The position numbers and the translations under genes were made by a program. A stretch of 62,268 bases of DNA from Psammoneis japonica. Lineage: Eukaryota. Position 1 is the first letter of the stretch, and each line of letters starts with the position of its first letter. Shown one piece after another: positions 31,092-59,429 of the stretch. The notes under the pieces are model-generated. The model saw nothing but the letters and a program-made list of their open reading frames with translations. It was not told where the DNA came from and ran no database searches. The stretch spans positions 1 to 62,268 of the forward strand of contig QPGO01000312.1 in assembly GCA_008632985.1 (NCBI GenBank), written 5' to 3'.

Positions 31092-34000
31092 TGACAGAAA
31101 TTAAAGATGACTGGGTGGAAGAAAACAATGACTCCTTACTGCTGTCTAAATAGCAGATGAGTCTCCATGCAGAGACCGTCACAGGAGCTGAAAGACTGGT
31201 GTCATGATGTTGGCACTACTGTCACCATTCTTGTGAGCCAAGCGGCTCCAAAGCAAACTACATCGGGCGTCGCACGCGGAACTAAGAGCACACATAATTA
31301 TGTGTGATAAACTAAAATCTTCTTCAAATCCTGTCACTCCCCAGTTTGCTTGAGGGGTCAACAGCGATAGATTTGAGGTCAGATTGGTTGAAAGCCTTGG
31401 GATCAAAGCTCCAAAACATTAGAGGACAAAGGAGGTTCCAGACCTGGGAGTAGCCCCAGTGCTTGCTGAGGATGTCAGCTGGGTTGTGGGAACCGTTGAA
31501 ATGAAACTTGAGGAAACCGGAGGCTATCACCTCACGTACATGGTGGAACGAGAGGGCGGTGTGTCGCTTGTGTAATGTGGAGTGTGGGATGGTAGCACTT
31601 TCCACAACCCACTTGTTATCCCCGAACATGTAACATGTTTCACGAATGGGGATGCCAAGGTAATGTAAAGTGATGCACAGACTATCAAGGGGTGCATCTG
31701 TGAGGTGCCCATCAGCAACAAGTTGCTCCTAGTGCAATCCGTCACATCTGACATCATAGACAGAATGCACCCTAATCTTCTTGTGTCCTGTTGGGGCACT
31801 GGAGTCCTTGTAGTGTCTGCAGTCCTCATGGAAAACCTTGTGCTCACCCAGCTGAGTCATCTTGAGGTCTGTCACGTCTCCCCACTTGCGGTTGCCATTG
31901 CGCTCGCCAAGGGCCAAGGCGCACCTGCAATCTCTTGGCACTTCATGCCCGTACTTGCATCGTGGTGTAGTACGAAATGAGCACAGCTTGGCTTGGTTGG
32001 TAATGCAGAATAGCTTCTTCTGGCACAGAGCCAAAGTTCGGAAGCATTTCCAGCCTTCGGTTTCGAGCAGGCCGTGTTCGCGTGTGTAGATGATGACACA
32101 GGTGATGGAATTTTCCTTGGCAATGATGGCAAGGGGTTTGGATGTGATCTCCCTATTCTCCCATTCAAGCATGACATTGTAGCTTGGGCTGGATGGTCCT
32201 TCGTGCAAAACGATGCATCGGAACTTCCAAAGAGTAGAGTCCTTGTCTTCTTGTTTGATGTGGTATATGATGTCATTGTAGTCAAGGATTTCTTTGCATT
32301 CATCATTGTCAACAGAGCAAATGAATTTGACTAGTTCTGGGTTGTTGCCAATTTTCCAGTCATGGTCTTCAACAGCCTTGAAGATGCGGGCTTGGTGGCA
32401 ATGTTCATCCTCTTGTGGCTTCATGAGGAAGGTGCGTCCAACAATGTGCTCAGGGTTGAAGACTGGCATCTTGGGCATCCTGATCTCCTCCCCATCTGAT
32501 GAATCCAGTGAATCTTCAGATTTGTGGCTGGATTTGATGATAGGTGCAGCAGTCTCCCCACCAGGAGGATCAAGTAGCAAGTTACGCGTCGATGGCTCAC
32601 CGGCAGTGGAGCGTCCATTGGACCGGTAAAGAATCTTCTGGGTGTCATCAGAAAGAATCTTGAAGGTCATGTGATGGCCCACATGCTTGGCAATGCCGAC
32701 GAAGTGACCACGCAACTCACATGATTTGGATGGCCAGTCGGAGTCATCCAGATGGCAGCACACTGGTTCCCACCATTGAAAATGGAGAAGCAGGATGTGA
32801 TGTGGGCGGGGAGTGGATCCACTCAGCACTTTAGTGGGGGCACGCCAGTGTAACTTGGCAGAGGCAGTGCAGTTGAGTAGAAAGCACATGTACATGAGAG
32901 TGAGGAAGGGGGGGTTGTCAGGTGAGAGAAGACGTTGTAGATTGCCATGCAGAAGAGGCTTGTGCTTTGTGAGATGTGCCAGGATGAGGTTGTTGTCCAT
33001 GCTGTTGTGCGCATTGGCGGGTGGTGCAGTGGTCGAGGCAAGATGATGAGTGTTGGCATGCAAATCGATGTTGCCATTGCTTCTGATGTCAGTGTCGGCA
33101 TTGCAGAGAGTCAATGGGGATGACATATCCATCAATGGTGGTGATGCACTGCATGCCGTTGGGGACCTTGATGGACCGATCATTGACGTCGTGCTTGTAC
33201 CACTCAAGTTGACCGCAAGAGTGTATGGTCTTGCCCTTTCCAGTGTAGGCATGCTGGTGAAGAATGGTGATGATGGGGCTGCATTGTGTGTGGATGACAC
33301 CACCAGTGGTGACAATGGGAATGTTGACTAGTTGGTGATTGTCGATACCTTGGATGTCAACCTGGCGACCAGTGCAAGCAATGACACGAACATCATCACC
33401 GGTGATACCACCGTTCACACCACGATCCACGAGGGCACCTTTGCAAGTCGATTTGTGAGTCGATGCACAGTAGACGACATTGTGGTTGTTGACACGACGG
33501 CATTTATGACCGTTGATCTCGATGTCAGTGTCGTTGGGCTTCTCGACGGAGCGGACGGAAGACGTAGATCCGGGGATTTCTCTCCAGAACGGGTGGAAGG
33601 AGGCCGTTCAGGTGCCAGGAGACATTGCAAGTCGCCGGGTGGCAGAGGCTTGCGCCTGGTGAGATGAGCCAGAATGGGGTTAGCATCAGCTGCATCAGCT
33701 GCAGTGTCAGATTGTGCGAAGGCTGATGCAAGATCGTGAGTGTTGGCGGACAAGTTGACATCACCATCGCTGTCAATGTGGAGGTCGTGCAGGTTGACCG
33801 CCGTCAAGTCATGGCAGTTGCCGGTGTGGGTGGTGCTTGAGCCAAGGATGATGGCCTTGGTGGACTGAGGCAAGGTGTCCCAAATGCGCTGATGGTTCGG
33901 CGGGATGCAACACCATTGTTCCCTGGTGAGGGAGTTGCCGCGAGTCTGTGCAGCATAAGCTTGGATGACATCAACATCACTGTCGATGTCGAAGAACACA

Positions 34001-36498
34001 TCATCATCAGGGTCATCGGGGACCAGGTCATGTTCGTAGATGGCACAGCGCGGATCACGAGGAGCCATCTTGGGGGTGAACGTGCTGTTGTACTGTGCCG
34101 CTGCAGAAAGTAGGAGTCCACAGTGCTGCTCGTAAGAAAGGCCCTTGCCATTCTGCGTGTGGAACTGATTGGCCTGATTCTTTACCAAACAAAGTTCTTC
34201 GACAGGATGAACGGTGTTCTCAAGCATGACGCATTTCTGGCCAGCAGAGAAGTGGTCCATGCCCAGGATAAGAGCTTCACACTTGCGGAGCTGGTCCTGC
34301 CAGTGGAGCATGAAGGCATGAGTGGATCCTTTCCAGGTGCCATCACCGAGGCGAGCAGAGGTGAGGTACGTGAGAAGGGTCGAGGACTCCAGGGATGCGC
34401 GAGTAGAAGCAAGGGCGTATTTGGACAAGTCATGATGCACTGCTTGAGCATCAGAGGTGCCGACATGCTCACGAACAAGTGCCTTGCCTTTGTCATTCTG
34501 CAAGATAGGTTCGAATGCGGTGAACATGCACTTCTGTTGTTTGTCGAACAGGGCCTTGTCCTCGGCTGTAGAGGGATTGTATGTCGGATCAAGAATGCGG
34601 TCGACGTCCTGGGAATGGGCCTGTGCGATGATGGAGGTGTGCCACATGTGCCAATGTTTGTCGGACTTGAGAAGTGCGAAGGTAAGTGGGTCATGTTTGA
34701 TGCCTCATTTAAAGTCACGCATGGGATCACGTGGTTTGGGTGGCAACGAACCAGGAGTGGGAGCAGATGGTGCTGTACCCATGGAGAGGGACGCTACATA
34801 CTCAGGACTAAGATGACAGTTGGTGAACTCCTCGTGTGTGAACAATTGAGGGTCATTGCTAACATCCGCGCCGCCGCGCGCTTTTACAGTGTACAGGCTA
34901 ATCAGCGCAGCTATCTGTGCTTTGTAACCACGTGGCAAAGGCATTTGATTGGTGCCGTCGTTGTACACAAGGGCATCCAGTTGCGTCGGAGTAAAAGTGA
35001 AGAGGTCCTGATACGAGTCGGTTCCGTCAATGTTGAGGGTGGAGCGCAATGGACTGTCTGCCGCTTGATTCAGAACAGTGCCTAGAATTTGCTCGAGGCC
35101 ATCAATTTGTTGCTGCCTGGTGAGAACCATGTTGCAACTACGTGGGTGTCGGGACAAGCTGGAGTCGGAGGGTGAGCTTGAAATAACTTGAAACTTGACT
35201 TGAATCTTGACTTGAAGTCTTGAACTATCTTATAAGTCAGAAGCCGCTGGGCTATGATATCCCGTTTGTAGTTAAATGCTAAGCTTCCTATCCGGTCCGT
35301 AGAGTTGTGCCGGCTCGTCTGAACCCACAGCTGGTGACGCTTTGGGTTGCCTGAGAGCAGAGTAACGGGTAAAAAAAAAACCCTGCTGACAAGCTAACTA
35401 GAGGTGGACAAGACCTCCAAACCGTTCTTATTTTATATTGGTTGGATAACCCGATCAGGCCGGCCGAATTTGGTGCTGTGGAGGGACAAACAAACGTGGG
35501 AAATGCACCCTCGCCCCAACGTAGGCTGTAATCACGAACTGCTTCCTCTCACAGTTGTCCTCGTGGACCTTGTAGGACTGTAGAAGACCAGCAATCCAGT
35601 GTAGATATGAAGCGGTAGACTTGGCTTGCGTGGAGCAGGGCCAGAGTCAAGAGTTTATGTCGTGTGCGCGTGGACCCGAGCGGATGGATTGGTCTGTCTG
35701 CCAACCACGGTAGAATCCGCTATAAGGAATCCGGAATCTCGGATGTCTGATAGTTCGGGAATTCCTGACCAAACAAATATCCGTTGAATAAATATATCCA
35801 GCGATGGCAGGTATTGGATAAATCCAAACATAGATTCAATCCAGCATGCAGCAGTGAAGAAGGTAGATGTGTACTTCCAACGCCAACGGCGCGCGTCGTC
35901 GAAAAATTTCTCGATGACGATGATGAATGCTCAATGGATGATAAAGAGCAAGACTGTTAATCTGACAGAAAATGAAGATGACTGGGTGGAAGAAAACAAT
36001 AACTCCTAGAATCTGCTGTAGGGAATCCGGAATCTCGGATAACTGAGAATTCGGGAATTCCTGACCAAACAAATATCCGTTGAATAAATGTATACAATGA
36101 TGGGAGGTATTGGATGAATCCAAACGTATAGATTTAATCCAGTATCCAGCAGCGAAGAAGGTAGGTATATACTTCCACCGCCAACAGTGTGTGTCGTCGA
36201 AATTTTTCTTGATGACGATGATGAACGCTCAATGGGTAAGAATGAGCGAGACTGTTAATCTGACAGAAATTGAAGATGACTGGGTGGAAGAAAACAATAA
36301 CTCCTTACTGCTGTCTAAATAGCAGATGAGTATCCGTGCAGAGCCCGTTACAGGAGCCGAAAGACTGGTGTCGTGATGTCGGTACTACTGTCATTATTCT
36401 TGTGAGCCGTGTGGCTCGAAAGCAAACTACATCGTGCGAAGCACACGGAGCACACATAATTATGTGTGATAAACTAAAATCTTGTTCAAATCCTGTCA
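31092..36498 (-). mobile_element. Internally deleted Copia family B element with both LTRs (5' 36261-36498, 3' 31092-31336); gag ATG at 35130
   Basis: gag MVLTRQQQIDG, protease DRGVNGG, integrase and RNase H pieces. PPT GGGGAG, PBS GATTAACAGTC. ~300-bp tandem duplication at 35710-36305. No matching TSD. Confidence 0.92.
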
Positions 36499-39228: not shown

Positions 39229-42108
39229 TTGTCCCATAGTTTGAGGTACACTGACACATGAATATATGCACAATGTCACAATGCTGTTCCGAGAATTCAT
39301 GAAGATACTTTCAAGAAAGAACTTCAGCATCTTGTTCAGATAAAGGTGTTGAGACCTTGTGGTCCTGCTCAATGGGCGTCTCCTTTGTTGATAATCATTC
39401 CTAAACAGGATCAATGAGTGCGATGGGTGTCCGATTTTTGCATGCTCAACAAGGAGCTAAAAGGTTGATCTATCCTTTGCCAAGGATTCAAGAGATTTTC
39501 AAGAAGAGAAAGGGACACATGCACTTCACCAAGTTGGACTTGTCTATGTTCTACTGTGCGTTGGAGTTGGATGAAGAAACTACGGAGCTGTGTGCTGTTG
39601 TTGATCCTCAAGGCAAATTCCAACATTGTCGGCTCGTGATGGGATTAAAACCGGCTCCAGATGTTGCTCAATTGGTTATTGAGGAAGTGCTAAATGAGTT
39701 GGACATAGATTGCTTTGTTGATGATGTTGGTCTCTTTTCAACCTCTTGGTCTGATCATTTGGCTGTGATCAATGCAGTGTTGCAATGGTGAGATGAGGAC
39801 TGTTCAAAAGTGAATCTGATCAAGTGCAAATGGGCCATTCAGGAAACCAATTTCCTCAGATGTTGGATGACTTCAGAAGGTGCCAAGCCTTAGAAGAAGA
39901 AGGGCAGAGGCAGTGCTTAAGCTTTCTCCTCCTAAGAACAACATGGAACTCAGATCTTTTATTGGAGCCGTCACTTGCTGTCATGACATATGGCCTCTAT
40001 GATTGCATGTTTTGGTGCCATTAATGGAATTGACAGCGAAGCAACATTTTGAATGGATGCCAGCTTGTCAAAAAGCTTTTGAAGAGATCAAGGCCATTGT
40101 GGTGGGTGACACATTACTTGCTTGCCCTGATCATAACCTTCCTTTTCAGATTTATGCAGATGCAAGTGATCATCAGCTTGGTGTGGTTATCACGCAGAAT
40201 GGCAAGCTGATCGCATGTTGGTCCCAAAAACTCAATGTGGCTCAGAAGAACTGTTCCTCTGTGGAAAAGAAAATGCTTGCTGCAGTTCTTTGCTTCAAAG
40301 AGTTCCAATCTATGTCATTGGGAGCTGACATAACAGTCCACATGGATCATAAGAATTTGACTTTCAAAATGCTTAATGCACAACAACTGCTTTGTTGTCA
40401 CCTTTTCCTTGGAGAATTTGGACCTAAATTTGAATGTGTTGAAGGCAAGGAGAACATTCTGGCTGATTTCTTTTCACGATTTCCTCGTGTGGAGAAAACC
40501 ATGGAAGGGAAGAGTTGTTCTAAAGTGGAGTGTAAAGGCACCATTGTTGCTTTCTCTCTTCCTTCAATTGCCAATGCTCCAGAAGACAAGTCGTTGGAAG
40601 AAGGTTTGGGTCCTGAGTTGAGCACTTTATTCTGCACCATTCAAGATCTAGAATTGGTGGATTGCTTTCTGAATTGTCCAAGTCTGGAAGAGATGCATCC
40701 TCTGAATTTTCCTGACATGCAAAGGCTTCAGTTTGAAGATCAAGAGCTGAATTAAGAGCGGCAAAGGAATCCGCTTATAGTTTTCCGACTCGATGCATTG
40801 GTGGAATTCCGTTGATTTGTTGGAGGCCTGAAATCAATGCACAAGAAAATGATTGGAAAATTGCTTTGCCAACCACTTTGTCAGCACCTGTTGTGAGGTG
40901 GTGACATCAAGTCTCAGGGCATTGTGGCACACAGAAGCTCTGCTGCACAATTTGCATGCATTGTCATCATCCGTCGCTGTGACAATTGGTCGAAAATAAT
41001 CATTGTGATACGTGCCAAAGGAGCAAGCTATGGGGAGCTGGATGTGGTCATTTGCCACCAAGAGAATCTCTGTTAGTTCCTTGGGATGAAGTTGCTGTTG
41101 ATTTAATTGGTCCTTGGAAAATGCAAGTACAAGGACAGGAAGTTGAGTTTAATGTGCACTAACTGCAATTGACACTGTTTCTAACCTTGTTGAATTGGTT
41201 TGCATTGTCAAAAAGAATTCAGATCACGTGCAGATGAAGTTTGCTAATTGCTGGCTAGCAAGATGTCCAAGACCAAACCGTTTCATTCATGACAAAGGCA
41301 GTGAATTTATTGGAGAACCATTTCAGATTCTGTTGGCGACAGTGGGAATCAAGGACGTGGAGACCACCACCGGAAATCTTCAAGCCAATGCCATTTGTGA
41401 GAGAATGCATCAAACTGCTGGCAACATTGTAAGAACAATGATTGGAGGACATCCTCCTCACAATATGATGAAAGCTCAGCAGATTGTTGACAATGCATTG
41501 GTCACTGCCATGCACAGTCTGTGATGCACTACATCAAGAGTTTTGGGAATTTCACCCGGAGCTCTAATCTACCAAAGAGACATGTTTCATGATTTACCTC
41601 TCATTGGAGATTTCATTGCCATTCAGAATCATTGACAAGTGTTGATTGATGATAACTTACATCAACAAAATCTCAAAAGACGCTTTTTCAACTATTGTGT
41701 CGGGCAACAAAATTTGATCAAGACAGATGATCCTGCTAAGTTGGAAGCCAGATCTTTTGGCCCTTTTCCTGTCACACAGATTCATGTGAATGGGAATGTC
41801 ACAATGCAAAGAGCACCTCATGTATTTGAATAGATTAACATTTCACGCATTTTGCCACATTGACTTTGGCATGATTAAGTGGATTGCGATTCAAAGCATT
41901 TGCATGAATCGCGGAAGGGAAGAGTGAAGTAAACTTCTGCATCATAATTACGTCAGCAGCTGCAAGATTTGGGAGATTCGAATGACCGGGATTGTTGACA
42001 CCTCGAAGAAATTCTGCGACAGAAACCCGAACACTGTGGCTGTAGTCAATCGTAGCTTTTCCCATAAATTTTAGAAAGTGCTCGTGGACAACTTATCAAG
42101 ACCGTTCA
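39229..42108 (+). mobile_element. Degenerate Gypsy element: RT, RNase H, integrase, PPT and 3' LTR 41925-42108
   Basis: FTKLDLSMFY, CFVDDVG, YADASDHQLG, ENILADFFSR, IHDKGSEF, QANAICERMH, GPFPV. PPT GGAAGGGAAGAG. LTR TGAA...TTCA. Confidence 0.9.
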
Positions 42109-43515: not shown

Positions 43516-46470
43516 TGCTGGAGTGCCCAAGGTTGCAGCATGCATCAGCTGACTGGAGAGGAGTGATGGAGGGGAAAGATCCTTTGTGGAAGAGGGTGCT
43601 TTGTGTTTGCTTGTTGGTGAGGCGGGTGGTGAGACGGTGAAGGTCTGTGGCAAAAGCTGCGGCTTTGTTGTGTAGGAAGTTCATGGTAAAGGTGAATGAG
43701 CCAATGGGTTGGCCAAGGAAGCAGATGCTGAAGGTGATTTTGGGCTTGATGTGTGAGTCGTTGTTGGGAGGAAGGTGAGGGCTTCCAAGAGAGCCTCAGC
43801 ATTGGCGGGTGGGATGCGGTTGATGGGAGAGGTGCCGGTGGTGGATGTGAGAATTTGTGTCTTGGAGGTGTTGAGCTTGATGCAAAATTGGGGGCCACAG
43901 GCAGAAGGTCGCTTGAGAAACCAAGGGAGCTGGGAAAAGGGGAGGAAAATGTGGGCATCATCAATCTATGATGAAATAGCAGATTTGGATCGGGGAGGAA
44001 GCTGGTGAAGTAACTCATCATTAATGGGGGTGAATGTGCGGGCAAGGACGAGGCAGGAGAAGGCGGGGCTGAGGGGACAGCCTTGGGCAAATCCTTCAGG
44101 TTGAGAAAAGGAAGACCATTGCAGTTGATGGTCTTGACACCAGCAAGTGTTGGGGTCTTGGTAAAGTGGGTCAAAAAAAGGCACGATGGCACGGTGTGTT
44201 CATCAGAGGTTGTAAGGGTGTCACGGCAAGCATCCCGAGAGCATTCATTGAAGCAATTGGAAAGGTCAAGAAGGAGGAGAGCTTTTGTGGGTGTGGAGTC
44301 TGGCTGAAAGAAACGTTTGATGTTGGTGCAAGTGGTGTCCACAAGGTGGTTGAGGCCGCCTTTGACACTGCCGACTCTGAATTGGCCAGAGAGAAGGAGG
44401 TTGGTGGCAAAGGTGGCAGCAAGGAGATGCATGACAAGGGGGTGCAGGAAATTCTCCACAGGGCTGTGCCAACACCAATTGGTCAAAGTTTGAAAAGGTT
44501 GGATGAATCCTTGTGTGGGGCAAGGAAACCATTGCATGAAAAAGCAGGTTTGATGGATGTAGGAATGTCTGCTGTGAGGATGAGGTCGAGCAGGCATTTG
44601 AAAGTGAGCAGGTGGGGGTGTGAGGAGGATGTTGGTGCAGAGCTGTGGTGAAGAGCACAGGCCTTGAAAAGGTCAGTGGACTCATCGAAGGCTCTGCACG
44701 CTTTGCCTGGTTGACATTTGGACAATGCTTTTTGAAGGTTGCCGGTGGTGAAATGCAGGGGGGGGAAGCAGATTGGTGGTGTCGGGTGGATGGTGCAGTG
44801 GACAAGCAGGTGTTTGCATGGCAGGCAGAGCTGTTTGACAAGCTCCATGCATTTGGGAGTGAGAGATGCAACAGGAAGGGAGGAGGTGACCCGGGCGTAA
44901 GCGGTGTGAAGGTTGTTGACATTTGCAGCGATTTGAGCGGAATGGACATAGGATGAGTGGTCAAAGTCAGGAGGTTCATCAGACATGCATGGCACGGTGA
45001 AAAGAAATTGAAGATGACTGGTTGGAAGAAAACAACAACTCCTTGCTGCTGTCTAAATGGCAGATGAGTCTCCATGCAGAGACTGTTACAGGAGCCAAAA
45101 GACTGGTGTTGTTGACATCGGTGCTGCTGTCATTGTTCTTGTGAGCCATGTGGCTCGAAAGCAAACTGCATCATGTGTGGCGCATGGAACTAAGAGCACA
45201 CATAATTGAGTGTGACAAACTAAAATCTTGTTCAAATCCTGTCCTTCCCCAGTTTGCTTGAGGGGTCAACAGCAATAGATTTGAGGTCAGATTGGTTGAA
45301 AGCCTCGGGATCAAAGTTCCAAAACATTAGAGGACAAAGGAGGTTCCATGATTCCAAGACTGGACATTAAGTTGTGTCCCATAATCATGTTGTATCTTGA
45401 AGAAGTCATGGAGTCATCGACGCATGCTGTCTTCTCAATCAGTTTGTGTTTATCAAATTCAGGTGGTGAGAATTGACAGCAGGGTGTGCCAGAGGTGTGG
45501 GTTAGCTGGTGCCGGTGTTGCTGGGCAAAGGTGCAACAGCACTTTAAATTATGTTTGGTTTTATTTATCAGTCATAAAGAGACCACCCTTGGTTTCCCAA
45601 GTCTTGGTGATAGATTTTTTACTTCTCAGCTTCTGCTTAAATTTGCACAAAATTATGGTTGAAGATGTTCTGCCATCAGGAAGAACGCACAGTGGCTTAT
45701 TTTTCTCCTTTCTCAAAGAAGCACTCATATGAGCAATGACTGCTGGACTAGCATGGATTACTTTAGCCCTTTTTAGGCTTCCTAATGTCCAGCAATGCAC
45801 AAGACTCCTCAAGCAGAGCCAGTCATTCCTCAGAATCGCCATGCATCATTCTCTTGAATTGGCAGTTTTCCAAACTGAGGGCATCAGAGTCACATTCCTT
45901 GCTCTCATGCTTTGAATTCTTCGTGTTTGAACTTGACTTGATGAAATTGTTGACTGCCTGTTTGATCATGGTGTTCAATTCCTCTTTTGGAGTGGCACTT
46001 TTAGTGCCGCAAAGAGCCACGTGCATTTGCCATTAGTGTGCTGCCATTTCGAGTTGCACTCAGCATTCTCTTGGTGCTCTTTTGCCATTCGTTTGATGAC
46101 CCAGCAGCACAAATCTGTGTTGTGTGAGTGTTCTTCTCTTAACAATTGCACCACTCATCAAACTTAAACCGCTTGTTGCCGGACAGGCAACCTGACAGGA
46201 TTTGAACAGGATTTAGGTGCACGCGGAATGTCGCGCACTATTTAGTCTACCGCGCACAGTTTTGTGTGCTCTTTAGTTCCGTGCGTACGCGCGCGATGTA
46301 GTTTGCTTTCGAGCCACACGGCTCACAAGAATAATAACAGTAGCCCAATTATACCGACTTACACGTCTTTCGGCTCCTGTAATGGTCTCTGAGCGGAGAC
46401 TCATCTGCTATTTAGACAGCAGTAAGGAGTTATTGTTTGAATTCTTGCCATTTGCCTTCAATTTCTTTCA

Positions 46471-46481
46471 GATTAACAGTC
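46471..46481 (+). other. Putative primer-binding site complementary to a tRNA-Asn anticodon arm
   Basis: GATTAACAGTC abuts the 5' LTR; same at 59181-59191 and, on the minus strand, 36250-36260, 35952-35962 and 13672-13682. Confidence 0.65.
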
Positions 46482-47404
46482 TTGCTCATTGTCAACCCAT
46501 TGAGCAACCGCCATCGTCATTGTTGATTTACCGACAACGCTATTTCAATTCTGCGTGGACCTCCGTATATATTCTACGTGTACATCGGCAAGTCTACGCG
46601 CATTCAATACCAGGCATCGGCAGGAATTTAACGTCACCGTCAAGTCTCCTTACCGCTGGATATCTGGATTGATTATACTACCTTTTATCGCTGAAGACAT
46701 ACATTCAACGGTTATATCCAAGTCTATCCTTGATCCTCATCCCTTGATATACCCATTCAACGGTTAACGGTCAAGAACCCTACATATTCAAAGATCTTCG
46801 TCACTGAAGACATATATATATATCTTCACGGCCAAGAACTTGAACCCACTCTTTGGACTACGGCTTTGCTACCACTCTACAAGCACACCGAGTCTATTGT
46901 ACCTGATCTACCCCGGACTACTGGTGCTCTACAGTTCTACTAGGTCCACGAGAACAACTGTGAGAGCAAGTAGCCGTGATTACAGCCTACGTTGGGGCAA
47001 GGGTGTTTTCCCGCGTTTGTTCGTTCGTCCACAGCGCCTAACGCCTAAGTCAACTGGCCAGCCTGATCAGGAAATCCAACCGATATAAAATAAGAACGGT
47101 TCGGGGGTCTTGTCCACCTCTAGTCAGCTTACCTGCAGGGGTTTACAACCCGCTACTCCGCTCGTAAGCAACCCAAAGCGCCACCAGCTGCGGGTTCGGA
47201 CGTGCCGGCACAACTCTACGGACCGGACAGGAAGTTTAGCACTTAACAACGAATGGGATAGCACAGCCCGGCGACTTCTGATTTTAAGATAGTTCAAGAT
47301 TTCAAGTCAAGTCTATTTCAAGTCAAGTCCATTCCCACTCAAGTTTCAAGTCTACCTCCGCGTCCTGACAAGAATCGCTTGCCCTGACACCGTTTTTGTC
47401 TACC

Positions 47405-50400
47405 ATGGTTCTTACTCGTCAGCAACAAACCGATGGTTTTGAGCACGTTGTTGGAACCGTGCTTGCCCAAGGTGCTGGAAGCCTTCTTCGTTTGACTTTG
47501 ACCCATGACGGCACGGACTCGTACCAAGAAATGTTCACGTTCATACCTTCCCAAATCAACTCGCTTGAGTACGATAACGGCACTAATGTGATCCCATTGC
47601 CCCAAGGTCATAAGAACATGTTAGCAGCTCTAGTTAGTCTGTACATTGTCAAAGCACACAAAGGCCTTGATGTTGCCAATGATTGCTGGTTGTTCACGCA
47701 TGAGGAGTTCCTTGCCTGCCACCTCAGCCCCGACCACATGTCTTCTGTGTCTGTCGGCAGCTCACCTCTTGCACCTCCGCATGTCACCAACCCGACCAAG
47801 GCACGCGACCCGGTGCAAGACTTCAAGCGAGGCATCAAGCGTGACCCCACTGCTTTCACGGCTCTCAAATCCAACAAGCAGTGGCACACTTGGCACACCT
47901 CACTTGTGGCACAAGCCCGTGCCCAAGACGTCGAGTGCATTCTAGACTCGTCGTACAAACCGACCAGCCCCGAAGACAAACTGCTCTTTGCTGAACAGCA
48001 AAAGCACATGTTCGCCATCTTCGAACGCATCCTTCTCACCGACAAGGGCAAGGCTCTCATTCGTGAAAATGTGGGGTCTTCTGACGCCCAGACCGTCTAC
48101 CGCGCCTTGTCCGAGTGTGCGCTCGCCTCCACCCGCTCATCTATCGAGTCCTCCACCTTGCTCACGTACCTCACCACCACACGCCTTGGTGATGGTACTT
48201 GGAAAGGTCCGACTCACGGGTTCATCCTTCATTGGCAGGATCAGTTACGCAAGTACGAGGCACTCATCCCGGCCAGTGACCACTTCTCTGAAGGACAGAA
48301 GCGCGTCATGCTCGAGAATGCCGTACATCCTGTTGAGGAACTCCGCGCCGTCAAGAACCAAGCTGATCAACATCGCACGCAGAGTGGCAAGAGCCTCACA
48401 TACGATCAACATTGTGGCTTGCTCCTCTCCGCGGCGGCTCAATACGACAGCACGTTTCAACCCAAGACGACACCTCGAGCTCCCCGCTGCGCCATATACG
48501 CACACAACGCCTACTCCGAGGAACCATCCGATGATGTGTTCTGTGAAAACATCGACAGCGACATTGACGTCCTTCAGGCTAACGCTGCCTACACCCGCGG
48601 TCCCAGCCTCACCGGCGACCAATGGAAATGTCTCCCTCCCGACCACCAACAGATTTGGGATTCGTTGCCCAATTCCTCCAAGGCGATCATCCTTGAGCAT
48701 TCTCGTCCGCCTCCTCACAACCCACGAGTCGGCAACTGCCATGAGTCCATTGCGGTCAACCTTCATGACCAACGACTTGGGAGTGACGGTGACATCAACT
48801 TGTCCGCCATGACTCTTGCTGACTCTGGTGATCCCGCTCCAAATGTGGATGCCACTTCAGACAATCCCATTCTGGCTCATCTCACCAAGCGCAAGCCACT
48901 GCCACCCGGTGATCTGCAATGCCTATTGTCTCCTAACCAAGCCCCCAAAGCCAGTCGACCGGGCCCATCCGCCACTCCCTCTACCTCGCCTGCTCCTCCA
49001 GATGACATAGAACTTAACGGCCGCACTTACCGCCGCGTTAATAACCACAATGTCATTTACTCTGCCTCCGCTCATCGCTCCACACGCACTGGTGCTCTAG
49101 TCGATCGTGGAGTTAACGGCGGCATTGCTGGCGATGACGTTCGCATCATTGCACGCACCTCTTGCCAAGTCGACGTTCAGGGCATTGACGACCATCAATT
49201 GGTGGACATCCCCATTGTCACCGCTGGTGCCGTCATTGAGACACAGCATGGTCCCGTCATTGCCATCCTCCATCAGTGCGCATGCACGGGAAAGGGCAAG
49301 ACCATTCATTCCTGTGGCCAGCTCGAATGGCACAAACACGACATCAACGATCGCTCTGTCAAGGTGCCCAATGGCTTGCAGCGTATCGCCACCCCTGATG
49401 GCTATGTCATCCCAATTGACATCAAGGGTGGCCTGCCTTACATTGCCATGCGGCCCTGCACTGATGACGAATGGGACACCCTGTCACATGTCATCCTTGC
49501 CGGTGATGACACATGGGACCCTTCCGTCCTCGATCACTCTATCACTGACAACGACCAGTGGTACGACGCGATCTCTGACCTACAGGACGATCCCACTGCC
49601 AACCCATTTGACAAGTGCAGCAACTACCGTCACTGTGTCGTTGTCAACAAGGCCATCATGTCTGCCTCCTTGTCTGCCGATCACGCGTCTGCCCTCGATG
49701 ACCACCTCATTCCGAATGAAGACGTGTTCTATGAGTGTCATCTGTGCACGATTGACCCCAAGGACGACGACGTTCCGCCTCCGGAGCGCAATGTNGCAGC
49801 CCAAGGACCCCCCCTACGAGTCTCTTCGGCCCCACTTTGGTTTCCAACCTGCCGACATGGTTTGTCATACTTTCGACTGCACCACGCAATGCGCCCGCAT
49901 GCCCGCCGGTACACACCTTAAGAAGGCCTACAAATCGCCCAACCCCGCCCTTAATGTGCACCGCCACAACGAGCCTATCGCCACTGACACCGTTCATGCC
50001 GACACCCCGGCCGTCGACTCTGGTTGCACCAGTGCCCAACTGTTTGTTGGTGCCAAGTCTACCGTCACTGACGTCTATGGCACCAAAACCGACAAAGAGT
50101 TTGTCAACACACTCGAGGATCAGATCCGTGAGCGTGGTGCTCCATCCAAACTCATCAGTGACCGTGCTCAAGTTGAGATCAGCAACAAGGTGCTCAGGAT
50201 TCTACGAGCCCTCTTCATCTCCAGCTGGCAAAGCGAGCCTCACCAGCAACACCAAAACTTTGCCGAACACTGACACCAGACCGTGAAGTGCATGGCGAAC
50301 ACCATCATGGACCGTTTCGGTTCACCTGCCCACACATGGCTGCTGGCGCTCATGTACGTTTGCTTCATACTCAACCACACAGCGTCCCTACGTCTCCACT

Positions 50401-53400
50401 GGCGCATGCCCCTCGAGACTCTTACTGGCTCCACCCCGGACATCAGCCCATTGCTTCGCTTTCACTGGTGGGAACCCGTGTACTTCCACCTCGATGACTC
50501 CGATTGGCCATCCGAATCCTGTGAGTTGCGTGGACGCTTTGTTGGCATTGCTGAACACGTCGGCCACCAGATGACCTTTAAGATTCTTTCTGACGACACT
50601 CAGAAGATCCTCTGCCGGTCCAATGTATGACCCGCTACCACCGATCCTTCCGTTCGAAACCTGCGTCTTGATCCTCCTGATGGGGAGCCACCTGAACCCA
50701 TCATCAAATCTTGCCATGACGACAACCCCATCGATTCACCTGATGGGGAGATCAGGACACCCAAGATGCCAGTTTTTGATCCGCAAGACATCATCGGACG
50801 CACCTTCCTCATGCAGCCACAAGAGGACGGACAACGCCACAGAGCTCGCATCGTCAAGGCCGTTGAAGATCACGACTGGAAAGTGAACGGCAACCCCCAG
50901 CTCACTAAGTTCGTCTGCTCTGTCAACAACGATGAATACGAGGAAGTCCTGGCCTACAACGACATCATGAATCACATTGAGCAAGAAGACGAAGACACCA
51001 CTGTTTGGAAATTTCGACGTATTGTGTCACACGAAGGACCTCTGAAGCCTCATGACCCAACCTGGAAAGGCTCAAGCTACAACATCATGCTTGAATGGGA
51101 AAGTGGGGAGATCACGTCCGAGCCTCTTGCCATCATCGCCAAGGACGACCCTGTCACCTGCACCATCTATGCACGAGAGAACGGACATCTCGACACTGAT
51201 GGCTGGAAGCGGTTCCGCACCATTGCGAGGCGCCAGAAGAAGCCATTCGGCATGGCCAACCAAGCCAAGCTTCGCTCCTTCCGCACTGCACCTCGCTACA
51301 AGTACGGATGCGAAGTTCCCCGGAACTACAAACACGCCATGTCCCTAGACGAACGCAAAGGCAACCGCAAATGGGGAGACGCAACCAATCTCGAGATGGA
51401 CCAACTCAATGAATACGAAGTCTTTCATGACTGCGGGCCCTCCGAGTCTTCCACTCCTCCTGCAGGACACAAGAAGATCCGAGTGCACCTAGTGTACGAC
51501 GTGAAACACGACGGCCGCCACAAGGCACGACTCGTAGCCGATGGACACCTCACGGACGTACCCATCGATAGTGACTAATCTGGAGTAGTCTCCCTTCGTG
51601 GCCTTCGGCTGATGATTTTCTTGGCCGAACTCAACGAGTTGGAGACATGGGCCACCAACATTGGTAATGCCTACCTTGAAGCCACCACCAAGGAGAAGCT
51701 GTACATTGTAGCTGGACCCGAATTCGGCAAACTCGAAGGCCACATTCTTGTCATCTACAAGGCCCTGTATGGACTGCGCAGCTCCGGCCTCCGCTGGCAC
51801 GAGCGCTTCGCCGACTGCCTGCGAGCTGAAGGTTTCTTCCCCTGCCGCGCCGAACCCGACATTTGGATGCGCAGGAGCGGCGACCACTACGAACATGTTG
51901 CCGTTTATGTGGATGACCTCGCCATTGCCATGAAGGATCCTCAATCTTTCGTCAATACTCTCACGGAAAAGTACAAGTTCAAGCTCAAGGGCACGGGACC
52001 GATTGAGTTCCATCTAGGCTGCGACTTCTTCAGGGATCCTGACAGCACCTTCTGTCTATCTCCGCGCAAGTACATCGAACACATGGTTGACAGCTACACA
52101 CGATTGTTTGGGGAGTAACCTACCACCAACGTCCTGTCCCCTCTGGAAAAGGGTGACCACCGACGCGTTCCAGCCCTAGGTGGGACTCCGTGTGACATTT
52201 GGCCCGTAGAATTCTACGTGCGAGCTCCGTAGTACGAGAATTTAATTAATGGATATATTTATCTTCAACATCAAATAAACGGCCAAGTTTGTGGTACAAT
52301 TATGCCTCTTACCACTCGACGTTTTTGCAAATGCACCTGCCCTACGCGATTTTTAAGACATTATAGAATCGCGCTGTAACAAAAAATGTCAAAAGTTTTT
52401 GGACGGATCGCTCAATAAGTGTACCGTAAAATGACACAAAATATCAAAAAATCACGTAGAATTCTACGTGCGCGACATACGACGAGATTCAAAAAACTAT
52501 CGATGTCACAGTTCAGTAGTGCGAGGTCCCACCTAGACCTGGAACGCGTCCACCCCGAACTGGACACTTCCGAACTGCTGGGGCCCGATGGCATTCAACA
52601 GTTCCAGTCTCTTGTTGGTTCCCTCCAATGGGCAGTGTCTCTTGGTCGAATTGACATTACCACGGCCGTCATGTCACTCTCTGGCTTCTGAGCTGCGCCC
52701 CGTCAAGGCCACTTGGATCGTGCCAAACGCATCTGTGGGCACCTCTCCAAGATGCGACACAGCGCTCTCCGCGTTTACACGGAAGAGCCCGACTATTCAG
52801 ATCTCCCTGCACCGGCCTATGAATGGATGTATTCCGTGTACGGCGAAGCAGAGGAGATGATCCCGAAGGACGCTCCACCGCCCCTTGGCAAGTTTGTCAC
52901 TACCACCCACTACGTCGATGCAAACTTGTATCATTGCATGCTCACCGGACGCTCTGTCATGGGAATGCTCCACTTCCTCAACAAATTCCCGGCTGATTGG
53001 TTCTCTAAGAAGCAAGCCACCGTGGAGACTGCAACCTACGGGTCTGAATTTGTTGCCGCAAGGACTTGTGTCGAGCAGATTATCGACCTGCGCATTACCC
53101 TGCGTTACCTTGGCATCCCGATCCGTGACATTAGTTACATGTTCGGTGACAACAAGTCGGTTGTGGACAGTGCCACCATCCTGCACTCCAAGTTACACAA
53201 GCGACACACCGCTCTGTTGTTCCATCGTGTGCATGAGGCGATTGCCTCTGGTCACCTTGAGTTCCACTTCATCGAAGGCTCCCGCAACCCTGCTGACATT
53301 CTCAGCAAGCGCATTGGGTTACTCCCAAATCTGGGACCTTCTCCGTCCCCTCATGTTTTGGAACTTCATTCCATCCAAAGTCGAATCTGTTTCTGTGACT

Positions 53401-53432
53401 CCTCAAGCAAACTGGGGAGTGACAGGATTTGA
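47405..53432 (+). pseudogene. gag-pol polyprotein (gag, protease, integrase, RT, RNase H) with several stops and a MITE insertion
   Basis: ALVDRGVNGG, ISDRAQVE, WQSEPHQQHQN, YKALYGLRSSG, AVYVDD, TATYGSEF, NPADILSK. Confidence 0.95.
52162..52550. mobile_element. MITE (389 bp), same family as 14116-15187, 4-bp TSD CACC
   Basis: TIRs GACGCGTTCCAG(CC/GT)CTAGGTGGGAC. CACC at 52158-52161 and 52551-52554; removal restores the Copia codons GDHPEL. Confidence 0.95.
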
Positions 53433-54958
53433 ACAGGATTTAGGTGCACGCGAAATGTCGCGCGCTATTTAGTTTACTGCACACAGTTTTGTGTGCTCTT
53501 TAGTTCCGCGCGTGCGCGCGCGATGTAGTTTGCTTTCGAGCCACATGGCTCACAAGAATAATAACAGTAGCCCGATTATACTGACTTACACGTCTTTTGG
53601 CTCCTGTGACGGTCTCTGAGCGGAGACTCATCTGCCATTTAGACAGCAGTAAGGAGTTATAGTTTGAATTCTTGCCATTTGCCTTCAATTTCTGTCACAA
53701 CCATTTTTGGAACCATTTCTGGGACCACCTTGGTTTTGGAACCAGGCTTGCCTTTGCCATCATCTTTGATGTAGATTTGGTCAAATGTGTCCTCTGCAAC
53801 CTCCAGACGTTCCAAAAACTCAACCAACTCGTCAAAGGTATGATCCAAAATTTCAAAACCTTGCCGGGTTGACTGACGACCCACTTGCGAGGTGCAAGGT
53901 TGTGGATGACATCCTTGAGCTCATCATCTTCCAAACTGTGGTTTGATTCAAAGGGAGGATAGAACTTGAAGTCCTCATTGACCTCCTGAGCCCATGCGGC
54001 ATGGTTTGATTCAAAGGGAGGATAGAACTTGAAGTCCTCATTGACCTCCTGAGCCCATGCGGCAATTTCTCAAATCTTCATTGACTTGGGTCTCTTGAGA
54101 TCATGTTGTAGATGTTGTTTCTGAATCTGAAGTGCATTCTTCGGGAAGACATGGTTAGAGAGACAATACAGGCACTTTTCAAAGGCTCCTTCAGCATCTT
54201 CATCATCGGCATTCACTGCCTTGTTCTCAAAAACTTGTAGAGCGCCTCCCTGCAACAACATGTGCATCATCTGAAACTTATGGGCTTGCTTCTCGACATT
54301 CCATCCAATCAAGACTTTCTTGCAGTTATTGAGAAATTGTGTGTGCTCTTAGTTCCGTGCATTGTGTGTGAAATGTAGTTTGCTTTCAAGCCGCTCAGCT
54401 CATAAGAACAATGAAAGTAGCACCGACATCATGACACCAGTCTTTAGGCTCCTGCAACGGTGTCAGCACGGATCCTCATCTGCTAAGGACCAATCCATCT
54501 GCACATGCTCACGCACACAAGATGTGCTCATCTGACTCTGGCCCTGCTCCATGCATGCCAAGTCTGCTGCCATGTATCTGCCCCAGATTGCTGGTCTTCT
54601 ACAGTTCTACAAGGTCTCCACAAGGATGACTGTGAGAGGAAGCAGTTTGTGATTGCACCTGCCTTGGGGCGAGGGTGCCTTTCCCACATTTGTTCGTCCC
54701 TCCACAATGCTTGTTTGGCTGCCCTGATCAGGTTATCCAACCGATGCAAAATGAGAACGGTTTGGGGGTCCACCTCTGGTTGGTTTGTCAGCAGGGTTTT
54801 TTAACCTGTTACTCCACTCTCAAGCAACCCAAGGTGTCACCATCCATGGGTTCAGACGTGCGGGCACAACTCTGCAGACCAGATGGGAAGCTCAGCACTT
54901 AACTGCAAACAGGACAGCACAACCCGGCGGCTTCTGATTTGCAACATAGTTCAAGATT

Positions 54959-55131
54959 TCAAGTCAAGTCTCAAGTCAAGTCTCAAGTCAAGTCTCAAGT
55001 CAAGTCTCAAGTCAAGTCTCAAGTCAAGTCTCAAGTCAAGTCTCAAGTCAAGTCTCAAGTCAAGTCTCAAGTCAAGTCTCAAGTCAAGTCTCAAGTCAAG
55101 TCTCAAGTCAAGTCTCAAGTCAAGTCTCAAG
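54959..55131 (+). repeat. Perfect tandem repeat (TCAAGTCAAGTC)x14 plus a partial unit, in the Copia 5' UTR
   Basis: Read directly from the sequence. Confidence 0.97.
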
Positions 55132-57345
55132 CCAATTCAAGTTTAACCTCTTGTCCAAGTTCTGACACCCTCCTCAGTTGCACCATGGTCCTCACCTGAC
55201 AGCAACAAACTGATGGCTTTGAGCACATCTCAGGCACTGTTCTGAACCAAGCTGCAGACAGTCCTTTGTGCTCTTCCCTCAACATCAATGGAACCAACTC
55301 CCACCAGGATCTCTTCATGTTTGCTCCAGCCCAACTCAATGCCTTAGTTTGCAATGATGGCACCAACCAACTCCCGTTGCCATGAGGATGCAAAGCACTC
55401 ATGGTGGTGTTGATAAGTTTTTACACTGTAACCTAGTGCGCTTGCATGCCTGCCAGTGTGCAAGTCACCCAACCTGGCTCTCAACAACTGTCACCACAAC
55501 AAACCTGTTACCACTGACACGGTGCACTCCGACACTGCCTCTGTCAACTCTGGATGCATCAGCGCACAGCTCTTTGTTGGTGTGGAATCCCTCGTCACCC
55601 ATGTGTGTGGCACCAAGATGGACAAGGAATTTGTCAACACCCTCAAAGACAACATTCACAACCATGGTGCTCCATCCAAGCTCATCAGCAATCGCACCCA
55701 AGTTGAGATCAGCAACAAGGTCCTTGGCATCCTCCATGCCCTCTTCATCTACAGTTGGCAAAGCGAGCCCCACCAACAGCACCAGAATTTTGCTGAACAC
55801 CACTGCCAAACTATGAAGAACATGGCCAACACCATCATGGATTGCTTCGGATCTCCGGCCCACACCTGGATCCTCGCTCTTATGTGCATGTGCTTTGTGC
55901 TCAACCACACAGCCTCTGCCAAGCTCCACTGGTGCACCCCCACCAAAGTGCTGTCTGGATCCACTCCTGCTGACATTAGCTCCCTCCTCTGTTTTCAATG
56001 GTGGGAACCTGTGCACTGCCACCTGGATGATTCGGACTGGCCATCTAAATCCTGTGAGTTGCATGGTCACTTTGTTGGCATTGCCGAACACGTGGGTCAT
56101 CACATGATGTTCAAGATTCTTTCTGACAACACTCAGAAGATTCTTTACCAGTGTGACATCTGCTCTGCCGCCGGTGACCCGTCGATGCACAATTTGCATC
56201 TTGATCCTCCTGATGGGGAGTTTGCTACACCCATCATCATCAAATCCCCTCATGACTCAGAGGATTTGCCAGATTTGTCAGATGGGGAGGAGATCAGGAT
56301 GCCCAAGATGCCAGTCTTTGACCCCAAGCACATTGTTGGATGTGCCTTTCTCATGAAGCCACAAGAGGATGGACAGCGCTGCAGGGCCCGTGTCATGAGG
56401 CTGTTGAGGACCATGACTGGGAGATCGGTGACAACCCAGAACTCATCAAGTTCATTTGTTCAGTTGACAATGATGAATGTAAGGAAATCCTTGCCTGCAA
56501 CAACATCATCCATCACACAGAGCAAGACAATGACAACACAACCATCTGGAAATTCTGATGTGTTGTGTCACACGAAGGACCGTTGAGGCCCCACGACCCC
56601 TCTTGGAAAGGCTCAAGCTACAACATCATGCTTGAATGGGAAAGCAGGAAGATCATGTCTGAACCCCTTGCCATCATTGCCAAGGATGCTCCCATCCCCT
56701 GTGCCACATGCGAACGTAAGCATGGCCTCCTCATAACTGAAGGATGGAAGTGCTTTTGCAAAATAGCTTTGCACCAGAAGAAGCTGTTCCACATGGCCAA
56801 CCAAGCCAAGCTGTGCTCATTTTGCACTGCCCCATGCTACAAGTGCGGGTGTGAAGTACCGCATGACTACAAGCACCCTTGGCCCTCAAAGAGCACAATG
56901 GCAACTGCAAGTGGGGAGATGCAATGAACCTCGAGATGACTCAACTCAGCGAGTGTGAGGTCTTAAATGATTGTGGACACTACAAGGACTCTAGTGCCCC
57001 AGCAGGACACAAGAAGATTTGCATGCACCTGGTCTGTGATGTCAAACATGACGGCAGGCACAAAGCATGACTTGTTGCTGATGGACAACTCACTGACATG
57101 CCCATCAACAGCATCTGTTCTGGTGTAGTGTCCCTCCATGGTCTCCAATTGATGATCTTCCTAGCTGAACTCAACAAGCTGAAGACATGTGGGTGACCTA
57201 CATTGGCAATGCCCACCCAGAAGCCATGACCCCAAGGAGAAACTGTACATCATTGCAGGTCCCAAATTTGGAGATTTGGAAGGACACATCCTTGTCATCC
57301 ACAAGGGTCTGTATGGCCTCCGCAGCTCCGGTCTCAGGTGGCACA

Positions 57346-57515
57346 TCGTACTGTCACTAGTTACTTCGGTGCGGCATGAGGGTGATGCCGGTACAGGCTG
57401 ATCGCTATATGCCCCTGCCGCACACATGTGCACTGGGGTGTGGGTTAGCTTGTTGCCGGAGTTGCTGGGCAGAAGCGTAATAGCACCTTAAAAATAGATG
57501 TCATGTTTTGTTTCA
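57346..57515 (+). mobile_element. Third, ~170-bp 5'-truncated Ambal-like LINE 3' end
   Basis: Reverse complement of the 6705-6890 region. TSD GTCTCAGGTGGCACA at 57331-57345 and 57516-57530. Confidence 0.87.
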
Positions 57516-58931
57516 GTCTCAGGTGGCACATATGAGTGCTTTGCCGATTGTTTGCAAGCTGGAGGATTCTTCCCATGCTGCGCCTAACCTGACATCTGGT
57601 TATGCTGGAATGGTGACCATCATGGACACGTGGCAGTGTATGTGGATGACCTGGCCTTTGCGATGAAAGATCCCCAGGCCTTCGTCCACTGTCACAGAGA
57701 AGCACAAGTTCAAACTCAAGGGCACTGGACCTCTGGAATTTCACCTTGGTTGCACCTTCTCTCATGACTCCGATGACACGCTGTGCCTGGCTCCTTACAA
57801 GAAGTGCATTGAGCGCATGGTCAAGAATTGCTCACGCCTTTTTGGGGAGAAGCCTCACACCAACACTCAGATGCATTGAAATCACTACATCCATCGTGTC
57901 CCTCTCCAGCTTCCATGCTGCACCCCGTCAAGGCCATTTGGACTGCGCCAAACCTGTCTGCGGATTCTTGTCCAAGATGTGACATGGTGCCCTACGAGTG
58001 TGCACTGAGGAACCCGACTATTCAGATCTTCCCAAGCCTGTGCATGACTGGGCTCAAACCACACATGGTGATGTGAAGGAACTGATTCCTGAAGATGCAC
58101 CTGAGCCTCTTGGTAAGCTCATCACCACGACCCACCATGTTGATGCAAACTTGCTCCACTGCATGCTCACTGGATGCTCCGTCACAGGCATCCTTCACTT
58201 CCTTAACAAGTTTCCAGCTGATTGGTTCTCCAAGAAACAAGCTGCAGTCGAGACTGCAACTTGTGGATCTGAGTTTGTTGCCACTGAGACATGTGTAGAA
58301 CAGATTGTTGATCTGCACACCACATTGCATCACCTCAGAGTCCCGATCCGTGACACATGTTACATGTTTGGGGACTGCAAGTCAGTTGTGGACAGTGCCA
58401 CCATCCCGCACTCCAAGTTACACAAGCGAAACACTGCCCTCTTGCTCCATCATGTACATGAGGCAATTGCCTCCAGTTTCTTCAAGGTCCACTTTATCGA
58501 AGGTTCCTGCAACCCTGCTGACATCCTCAGCAAACACTGGGGTTACTCCCAGGCTTGGAACCTCCTCCATCCTCTCATGTTTTGGAATTTTGATCCTGAG
58601 GCCTTTGGTCAATCCGACTTCAAATCCATTGCTGTGGACTCCTCAAGCAAACTGGGGAGTGACAGGATTTGAACAAGTTTTTAGTTTATAGCACATAATT
58701 GTGTGTGCTTTCCATGCGTAACATGCGTGCGTGCGTGACATAGGGCCGTGGTAGTTTGCTTTTGAGCCACTCTCGGCTCACAAGAACAATGACAGCAGCA
58801 CCGATATCATGACACCAGTCTTTCGGCTCCTGTAATGGTGTCTGCACGGATGCTAATCTGCTGTTTAGACAGCAGTAAGGAGTTGTTGTTTTCTTCCACC
58901 CAGTCATCTTCATTTTCTGTCAGGTTGACGT

Positions 58932-59429
58932 TGACAGGATTTGAACAAGATTTTAGTTTATCACACATAATTATGTGTGCTCTTAGTTCCGCGCGCGATG
59001 CACCATGTAGTTTGCTTTCGAGCCACTCGGCTCACAAGAATAACAACAGTAGCACCGATGTCAACAACACCAATCTTTCGGCTCTTGTAACAGTCTCTGC
59101 ACGGAGACTCATCTGCTATTTAGACAGCAGTAAGGAGTTATTCTTGTTGTCTTCCACCCAGTCATCTTCAATTTCTGTCAGATTAACAGTCTTGCTCATT
59201 TTCATCCATTGAACGTTCATCATCATCATCGAGAAAAGTTTCTACGACACGCACCGTTGGCGGTGGAAGCACATACCTGCCTTCTTCACTGCTGCATGAT
59301 GGATTGAATCTATGCGTTTGAATCTATCCAATACTTCGCATCGCTGGATATATGTATTCAATGGATTTTTGTTCGGTCAGGAATTCCCGAACTCTCAGAC
59401 ATCTGAGATTCTGGATTCCCTACAGCAGA
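58932..59429 (+). mobile_element. Further Copia family B 5' LTR (58932-59180), PBS and partial UTR, interrupted by the YR element
   Basis: LTR termini and GATTAACAGTC; UTR matches the reverse complement of 36009-36260. Confidence 0.88.

Follow-up and report, generated by a model that had tools for sequence, protein, structure and literature searches.

Minus-strand synthesis in a Ty1/copia-type lineage of diatom retrotransposons is probably primed by a 5' fragment of the cytoplasmic tRNA-Asn(GUU). The putative primer binding site, the 11-mer GATTAACAGTC, directly adjoins the LTR and recurs unchanged in distant relatives. Its complement has the exact form of an anticodon arm, and a self-primer is absent from the element's own 5' LTR and from the related junctions. 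The site was recognized in the window, which is the whole stretch of 62,268 nucleotides of Psammoneis japonica DNA that was analyzed.

Retroelements and other features of the window

The window is a transposon-rich stretch of a diatom genome. The sole clear host gene among those examined is a WNK-type protein kinase, encoded by an intron-free frame of 989 codons at 15943-18912 on the plus strand and 70-85% identical to proteins of Bacillariaceae, Fistulifera, Pseudo-nitzschia, Seminavis, and other (raphid) diatoms. The copia elements analyzed here, referred to as family B, are present in at least six copies, including a solo LTR. The copies and the main features of their structure are as follows.

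About 13787 to 5507, minus strand: copy A
36498 to 31092, minus strand: copy B
About 45001-45284, minus strand: solo LTR
46193-53697, plus strand: copy C, the clearest and most complete copy
54337-58922, plus strand: copy D, with its 5' junction lost
From 58932, plus strand: copy E
46193-46470, plus strand: 5' LTR of copy C (TGACAGG...CTTTCA), 94% identical to its own 3' LTR; CAACC flanks the element
47369-49921, plus strand: open frame with predicted gag (capsid) and protease-like beta region; no Pfam family matched
51579-52118, plus strand: copia-type reverse transcriptase fragment (RVT_2), E = 2.4e-20
53408-53419, plus strand: polypurine tract region CAAACTGGGGAG; the identical 12-mer precedes three of three 3' LTRs
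53420-53697, plus strand: 3' LTR of copy C; the target duplication CAACC comes next, at 53698-53702 (partner at 46188-46192)
58932-59180, plus strand: 5' LTR of copy E
36261-36498, minus strand: 5' LTR of copy B; its 3' LTR lies at 31092-31336 and the pair is 89% identical

The LTRs of copy C measure 278 nt each. The termini of the family are TGACAG...CTGTCA (TG..CA type), and a 5-bp duplication, CAACC, stands on both sides of copy C. Besides copy C, RVT_2 was recognized in copy A (7709-8359, E = 4.5e-10) and in the relative P0134.

Sequence searches of the 850-codon frame at 47369-49921 against Pfam and PDB profiles gave zero matches. The predicted model of this frame reached a pLDDT of 80-90 over residues ~15-365, which make up N-terminal helical domains, and its best Foldseek match was the Drosophila Copia capsid (8vvw_A; TM 0.47 on the target, probability 1.00, but a weak E-value of 8.7e-3), with the PNMA2 and Arc capsids next in rank. 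The model points to a retroelement capsid fold in this frame, at the weak E-value given. Protease and integrase were without a Pfam or PDB sequence match in the element frames. As for the copia order of protease, integrase, and reverse transcriptase, possible motifs were recognized by eye only, in the A2 alignment consensus, and the model has a beta region at residues 590-710, with low confidence in its remainder.

RVT_2, the copia-like capsid fold, TG..CA LTRs, the 5-bp duplication, and the polypurine tract identify the elements as Ty1/copia (Pseudoviridae) type. With broken frames, 70-75% internal identity between copies, and 89-94% identity within LTR pairs, the copies of family B are old and decayed. 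In the protein collection, the gag-protease frame had 53 relatives from metagenomes and assemblies, only one of which carried a Pfam domain (RVT_2). Standard domain-based annotation would miss most elements of this lineage, as the gag-protease(-integrase) part escapes Pfam and PDB despite these relatives.

Other repeats and element remnants were also observed in the window. An RT_RNaseH_2/RT_RNaseH fragment at 40003-40755 (plus strand, E = 1.7e-23) is the remnant of a Ty3/gypsy-type element. A frame of 620 codons at 404-2266 (plus strand) matched RVT_2 below the threshold (25.5 bits, where 31.6 are required) and may represent a second, more divergent copia family; a primer site of this element was not found. 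Two stretches of ~1.5 kb at 4020-5564 and 43516-45058, 39.5 kb apart on the same strand, are 89-99% identical and hold minus-strand open frames without a Pfam match. They may belong to a further element family or stem from a segmental duplication adjoining family B LTR fragments. Furthermore, tandem direct repeats of ~630 nt with 93-97% identity occur at 21016-21917 and 20886-21648.

The putative primer binding site in the window

The 11-mer GATTAACAGTC occurs exactly five times in the window, at 13672, 35952, and 36250 on the minus strand and at 46471 and 59181 on the plus strand. With up to one mismatch allowed, shuffled sequences gave a mean of 1.0 occurrences and none of 100 shuffles reached five, although the window copies are homologous and the five occurrences are therefore not five independent events.

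46471-46481, plus strand: putative primer binding site GATTAACAGTC of copy C, complementary to tRNA-Asn(GUU) positions 30-40
59181-59191, plus strand: putative primer binding site of copy E
36250-36260, minus strand: putative primer binding site of copy B, then a hairpin at 36225-36249 (CGCTCA/TGAGCG)
35952-35962, minus strand: putative primer binding site in a partial tandem duplicate of the copy B LTR end and leader
13672-13682, minus strand: putative primer binding site of copy A, next to an LTR end decayed to TGTTA (13683)

Each of the five sites lies directly 3' of an LTR end, ...TTTCTGTCA (...TCTGTCA), or of a decayed form of it, namely TGTTA at 13683 and TTTCA at 46470. The original prediction had described five 5'-LTR ends followed at once by the motif and lacking TGG, and this was confirmed at all five, none of which is followed by TGG. 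The bases after the 11-mer agreed with it as well, being TTGCTC in four copies and TCGCTC in one. At the 3'-LTR ends (53697, 58922, and 31092) unrelated sequence comes next, and the 11-mer was found at none of the three. As it follows 5'-LTR but not 3'-LTR ends, the 11-mer is the first internal sequence of the element rather than part of the LTR, which is the position required of a primer binding site.

Short motifs for other primer types, i.e., the iMet half, the iMet 3' end, and the Lys half, gave no match adjoining an LTR end in the window. Copy B has two primer sites in one element through a tandem duplication of LTR end, site, and leader. The duplicated segments, 35830-36007 and 36128-36305 (minus strand), lie 298 nt apart and are 88% identical.

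Conservation of the site in metagenomic relatives

An alignment of the relatives was scanned over metagenome contigs, which gave 239 confirmed stretches, and the best 80 of these were kept as 79 loci. The best-segment identity of these 79 loci (best 80 of 239 stretches) ranged from 31 to 61%, and the gag-protease relatives encoded by them share 32-50% protein identity. In 34 of the 79 loci (again among the best 80 of 239 stretches), the exact 11-mer was found, at 36 sites in total and always on the element strand; the opposite strand had no match in any of the 79. The 11-mer was located upstream of gag in 27 loci and 5.5-7 kb downstream of it in nine. No relatives of the family were found in viral contigs.

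Of the 25 loci that extend 1000 nt or more beyond the projected gag start on its upstream side, 20 carried the exact 11-mer and one (L177) a form with two mismatches. In the other four, no such site was found, and LTR ends were not located there. The site is preceded by CA in 35 of 39 distinct junctions and by TGTCA in 25. Beyond the site, information content amounted to 0.4-1.0 bit at +12 to +15 and mostly to 0.3 bit or less further on, and the bases following the 11-mer vary by sub-lineage (GTAG, GCAG, ACAG, TCGG, TTGG, and others). Since the exact motif served to locate the junctions, bases 1-11 are invariant partly through this selection of the data, and the unbiased figure is the 20 of 25. 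This figure and the sharp edge of conservation at base 11 are free of that selection. That the site stayed the same despite such divergence of LTRs, leaders, and proteins suggests that it pairs with a host molecule that does not vary.

Variant sites were observed at three loci. In L177 (1231-1241), GATTGACAATC follows TAATCA at the expected place and differs from the usual site by two transitions. The flanks of its complement are still paired and it would read the anticodon GUC; by its sequence, this variant may be either a decayed copy or a primer switch. The variants GATTAACAGAT in L170 (537-547) and GATTAACAGTT in L195 (175-185) follow an LTR-like end and are changed only at the last one or two bases, on the side of tRNA positions 30-31.

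The loci with an LTR and site junction 5.5-7 kb downstream of gag were L123, L124, L125, L135, L139, L142, L161, L184, and L188, with the junction on both sides of gag in L139 and L184. These downstream junctions probably represent tandem element arrays or the wrap-around assembly of multi-copy elements.

Match of the site to the tRNA-Asn anticodon arm

The complement of the site, GACUGUUAAUC, takes the form of an anticodon arm with two stem pairs, C32, U33, GUU, A37, and A38, ending at C40. It covers canonical tRNA positions 30-40 in a register that was checked on the ARAGORN-called tRNA-Asn gene of the viral contig L027, and the 7-nt loop with GTT ending at tRNA position 40, as originally predicted, proved to be in the right register. 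From its sequence, the site adjoining the 5' LTR would complement the anticodon loop and stem of a tRNA and not a CCA end.

When a loose pattern for an anticodon arm preceded by CA was searched for in 377,889 nt of related loci, it returned the 11-mer 33 times and 38 other matches, none of which was seen more than twice. By chance, the loose form occurs at ~1e-4 per position, or in ~0.2% of cases for an arbitrary conserved 11-mer.

The search string GACTGTTAATC followed by a T-loop, scanned over viral contigs, gave at least 119 matches in at least 118 loci, and ARAGORN called tRNA-Asn(gtt) in all six of the loci that were checked. Clusters of tRNA genes (Leu, Asn, Gln, Tyr, Lys, and Glu) are present on the viral contigs L027, L107, and L116, the first of which comes from a contig labelled as a giant-virus MAG. 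The tRNA-Asn genes of these three have a eukaryote-like body and no encoded CCA. The G30-A31/U39-C40 arm is known here only from phage, bacterial-type, and giant-virus tRNA-Asn genes, and tRNA-Asn of some eukaryotes has G31-C39 instead. ARAGORN detected no tRNA genes in the window or in the 79 related metagenome loci, and Rfam found no RNA family in the window.

The short duplex of 11 pairs counts against a tRNA-Asn primer. In addition, A37 of ANN-reading tRNAs is normally t6A, which pairs poorly; this weighs equally on the half primers already accepted, namely those of iMet, Ile, Lys, and Arg.

Contigs from three DNA runs of one sample, two of which contain the kinase gene, were compared with the tRNA-Asn gene region L027:185-261 at 80% likeness. 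Four tRNA-like records matched, with 7-8 differing letters (not displayed) over 42-56 nt. Their loose ends suggest acceptor stems bearing discriminator A, a feature that we take to be unlike tRNA-Asn. In Phaeodactylum, a small-RNA table lists reads for Asn-GTT and no flagged fragment class for it (PMC4247016, supplementary file 9).

The hairpin adjoining the site

In copy C, the site is directly followed by a hairpin.

46482-46507, plus strand: hairpin TTGCTCA/TGAGCAA of copy C

Folding of the 32 nt after the site gave a mean z of -1.9 against shuffles, with 25 of 40 distinct junctions below -1 (Wilcoxon p = 7e-6), and the control segment from +19 to +50 a mean z of 0.09. Within the 7-bp stem, 88.9% of cells were paired over nine alignable sequences, compared to 78% in shuffles, and none of 500 shuffles reached 88.9%. 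With the partner strand slid, only 14-42% were paired. Three pairs of the stem are changed on both sides, in a small sample of related sequences.

The GCTCA/TGAGC stem of the window copies is one version of a hairpin that is conserved in position, and sub-lineages with an identical site carry unrelated hairpins. Site and stem are separated by 2 nt in the copies of the window and by 7 nt in the loci L142, L158, and L166, compared to 4 nt in tRNA, and the loop of the element hairpin is 11-13 nt long. The matching D-arm string, GCTCAATGG, was present in one of the 119 tRNA-Asn genes among the matches listed, or in seven of the 119 when wobble pairs were allowed.

The original prediction had further read this stretch as a D-arm-like extension of the tRNA match. 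GCTCA...TGAGC is indeed present next to the site, but as the stem covaries and its spacing varies, it is the element's own hairpin and not a complement of tRNA. Complementarity to the D arm was rejected for the rarity of GCTCAATGG, the misfit of spacing and loop, the other hairpins carried by relatives, and the intramolecular covariation. The hairpin may instead stack on, stabilize, or limit the 11-bp primer duplex.

Proposed priming mechanism

In the proposed mechanism, tRNA-Asn(GUU) would be cut in the 3' strand of its anticodon stem after C40, and the last 11 nt of the resulting fragment (G30 A31, C32 U33 G34 U35 U36 A37 A38, U39 C40) would pair with GAUUAACAGUC. The primer would be this 5' tRNA fragment and not the CCA end of a whole tRNA. 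As the site abuts U5, the first base copied would be the A of the LTR-terminal CA. The hairpin of the element RNA, which starts 0-2 nt after the site, probably limits or stabilizes the short primer duplex. We infer that the host tRNA-Asn has the G30-A31/U39-C40 arm and is cut, and likewise any role of the hairpin.

Priming by a tRNA-Asn half, as originally predicted from the window, remains the best reading and is now backed by comparative evidence, since the 11-mer follows the LTR in 34 of 79 distant loci and conservation ends at base 11. The comparison supports the site and its form, from which the identity of the primer is deduced; the D-arm part of the prediction did not survive.

A primer of another origin was also considered. 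Another host RNA ending in GACUGUUAAUC, i.e., an organellar tRNA-Asn fragment, an snRNA or snoRNA, or another tRNA-derived fragment, is an unlikely source. Bacterial-type tRNA-Asn genes, the kind found in organelles, commonly carry the exact arm, as the matches in viral contigs (at least 119) illustrate. However, the anticodon-arm form is complete, with U33, paired flanks, and a purine at 37, which would be unexpected of a chance RNA end, and the Rfam search of the window speaks against this origin as well. Copia reverse transcription takes place in cytoplasmic particles (PMC8515867), in which organellar tRNAs would also be unexpected.

It is improbable that the 11-mer and hairpin form some other cis-element, active in packaging, dimerization, or integrase recognition, with a mere likeness to an anticodon arm and with priming elsewhere or by other means. 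In its favor, the hairpin is conserved in position here. Fungal GalEa, placed with the CoDi-like clades of diatoms in one major branch of copia elements, lacks a classical site and has a conserved hairpin in its place (PMC5445492), and priming in such another way has been proposed for it. Against such a cis-element, no alternative site was found in the elements, as TGG is absent and no other recurrent motif resembling an anticodon or a CCA end was detected. The motif begins right where the LTR ends, as is required of a primer site, and is one base away from the FunCo1 site assigned to tRNA-Lys (PMC5445492).

In self-priming as in Tf1, the 5' end of the transcript folds onto the site, is cut, and primes in place of a tRNA; some copia lineages, TAR among them, are predicted to do so (PMC6317226). 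Self-priming would be in keeping with a hairpin adjoining the site and with the pairing of at least six site bases in the minimum-energy fold of -12 to +51 in 24 of 40 junctions, but is very improbable here. A self-primer would let site and partner drift together, yet the 11-mer is the same across lineages with unalignable LTRs and leaders. A search for pairing with the element's own 5' end, which had been named as a possible objection to the original prediction, found no complement of 6 nt or more in the 5' LTR of copy C to the 25 nt starting at the site. Among 32 metagenome junctions that reach 150 nt or more upstream, none had a complement to the 11-mer within 1000 nt at up to two mismatches.

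Implications for half-tRNA priming

Priming by a tRNA-Asn half would extend half-tRNA priming to a fifth tRNA and to diatoms. The tRNAs iMet, Ile, Lys, Arg-UCU, and Asn all read ANN codons, from which we infer that U36-A37-A38 is common to them; position 37 is t6A in ANN-reading tRNAs. At the level of the sites, TTA at bases 3-5 is common to those of the named half-tRNA primers and to the diatom site. It is tempting, though speculative and rather doubtful at present, to regard half-tRNA priming as a general strategy limited to ANN readers, in which the tRNAs are picked or cut (after 39/40) via U36-t6A37-A38 by one conserved activity of host or element. Under this generalization, Asn would be one more member of the set, a single base change in the site would switch the primer from Lys-CUU to Asn-GUU, and a dedicated hairpin would aid the 11-bp duplex.

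To our knowledge, the production of the primer fragment is an open point even for copia itself, and the restriction to ANN decoders offers a testable lead on how it is made. If the generalization holds, the hairpin beside the site would be a kind of cis-element new to copia priming. Diatom transposons are dominated by copia-like elements, whose priming was previously undescribed. Given the invariance of the site throughout a deep, widespread lineage, the 16 bases of TGTCA and the 11-mer can serve as a tag for annotating such elements. For biology in general, the result is incremental.

Comparison with known systems

The closest parallels to the diatom site are the hemivirus-type primer sites of copia elements. 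The register of the half tRNA-iMet in Drosophila copia and yeast Ty5 reportedly agrees with that of the diatom site within about one nucleotide. The sites of Drosophila copia, Ty5, and several plant lineages likewise abut the 5' LTR, lack TGG, and complement the anticodon loop with part of the stem, so that the primer must be a 5' tRNA piece cut there (PMC6317226, PMC8515867). The diatom family differs from them in the use of Asn(GUU) instead of initiator Met, in its diatom hosts, in a site of only 11 nt, and in the hairpin directly after it.

Half-tRNA priming beyond iMet is shared with plant and Candida elements. In PMC6317226, the plant copia lineages Osser, Bryco, and Gymco-II are described as using a half-molecule of tRNA-Met cut in the anticodon stem, and Bianca a half tRNA-Ile cut likewise. 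For Candida albicans, PMC4139406 reports complementarity to internal regions of tRNA-Arg(UCU) (gamma/Tca2 and whio) or tRNA-iMet; the "extensive region" of homology given there for gamma compares to 11 nt in the diatom family.

The site of FunCo1 in Pezizomycotina, ATTAAGAGTCT, differs from the diatom site by a single base and is described in PMC5445492 as an 11-nt site complementary to an internal tRNA-Lys region. Both sites lie right after the LTR. Aligned as ATTAAGAGTC against ATTAACAGTC, they share ten positions, with the sole difference opposite tRNA position 34, and one substitution would therefore switch between the Lys(CUU) and Asn(GUU) arms. The comparison is one of site sequence; the tRNA and the host kingdom are different.

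GalEa of fungi, a member of the same major copia branch, resembles the diatom family in a conserved hairpin at or adjoining the place of the primer site. GalEa has a "conserved hairpin site" and no recognizable tRNA site (PMC5445492), whereas the diatom family has a clear anticodon-arm site before the hairpin. The host group and the copia superfamily are shared with CoDi, the abundant and diverse copia-like elements of diatoms (Maumus et al. 2009, PMC2806351). In the main text of that paper, "tRNA" and "polypurine" are absent and the sole "PBS" is a buffer, so that priming is not described there.

The original prediction had also supposed the use of tRNA-Asn in this mechanism to be undescribed. 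This agrees with the literature searched, in which few subscription journals were covered and which held no report of a tRNA-Asn half primer or of the 11-mer as a primer site, but priming beyond iMet was already described for Ile, Lys, and Arg. Half-tRNA priming in copia elements is known with iMet, Ile, Lys, and Arg, and it is the choice of tRNA-Asn that appears to be new in the diatom family.
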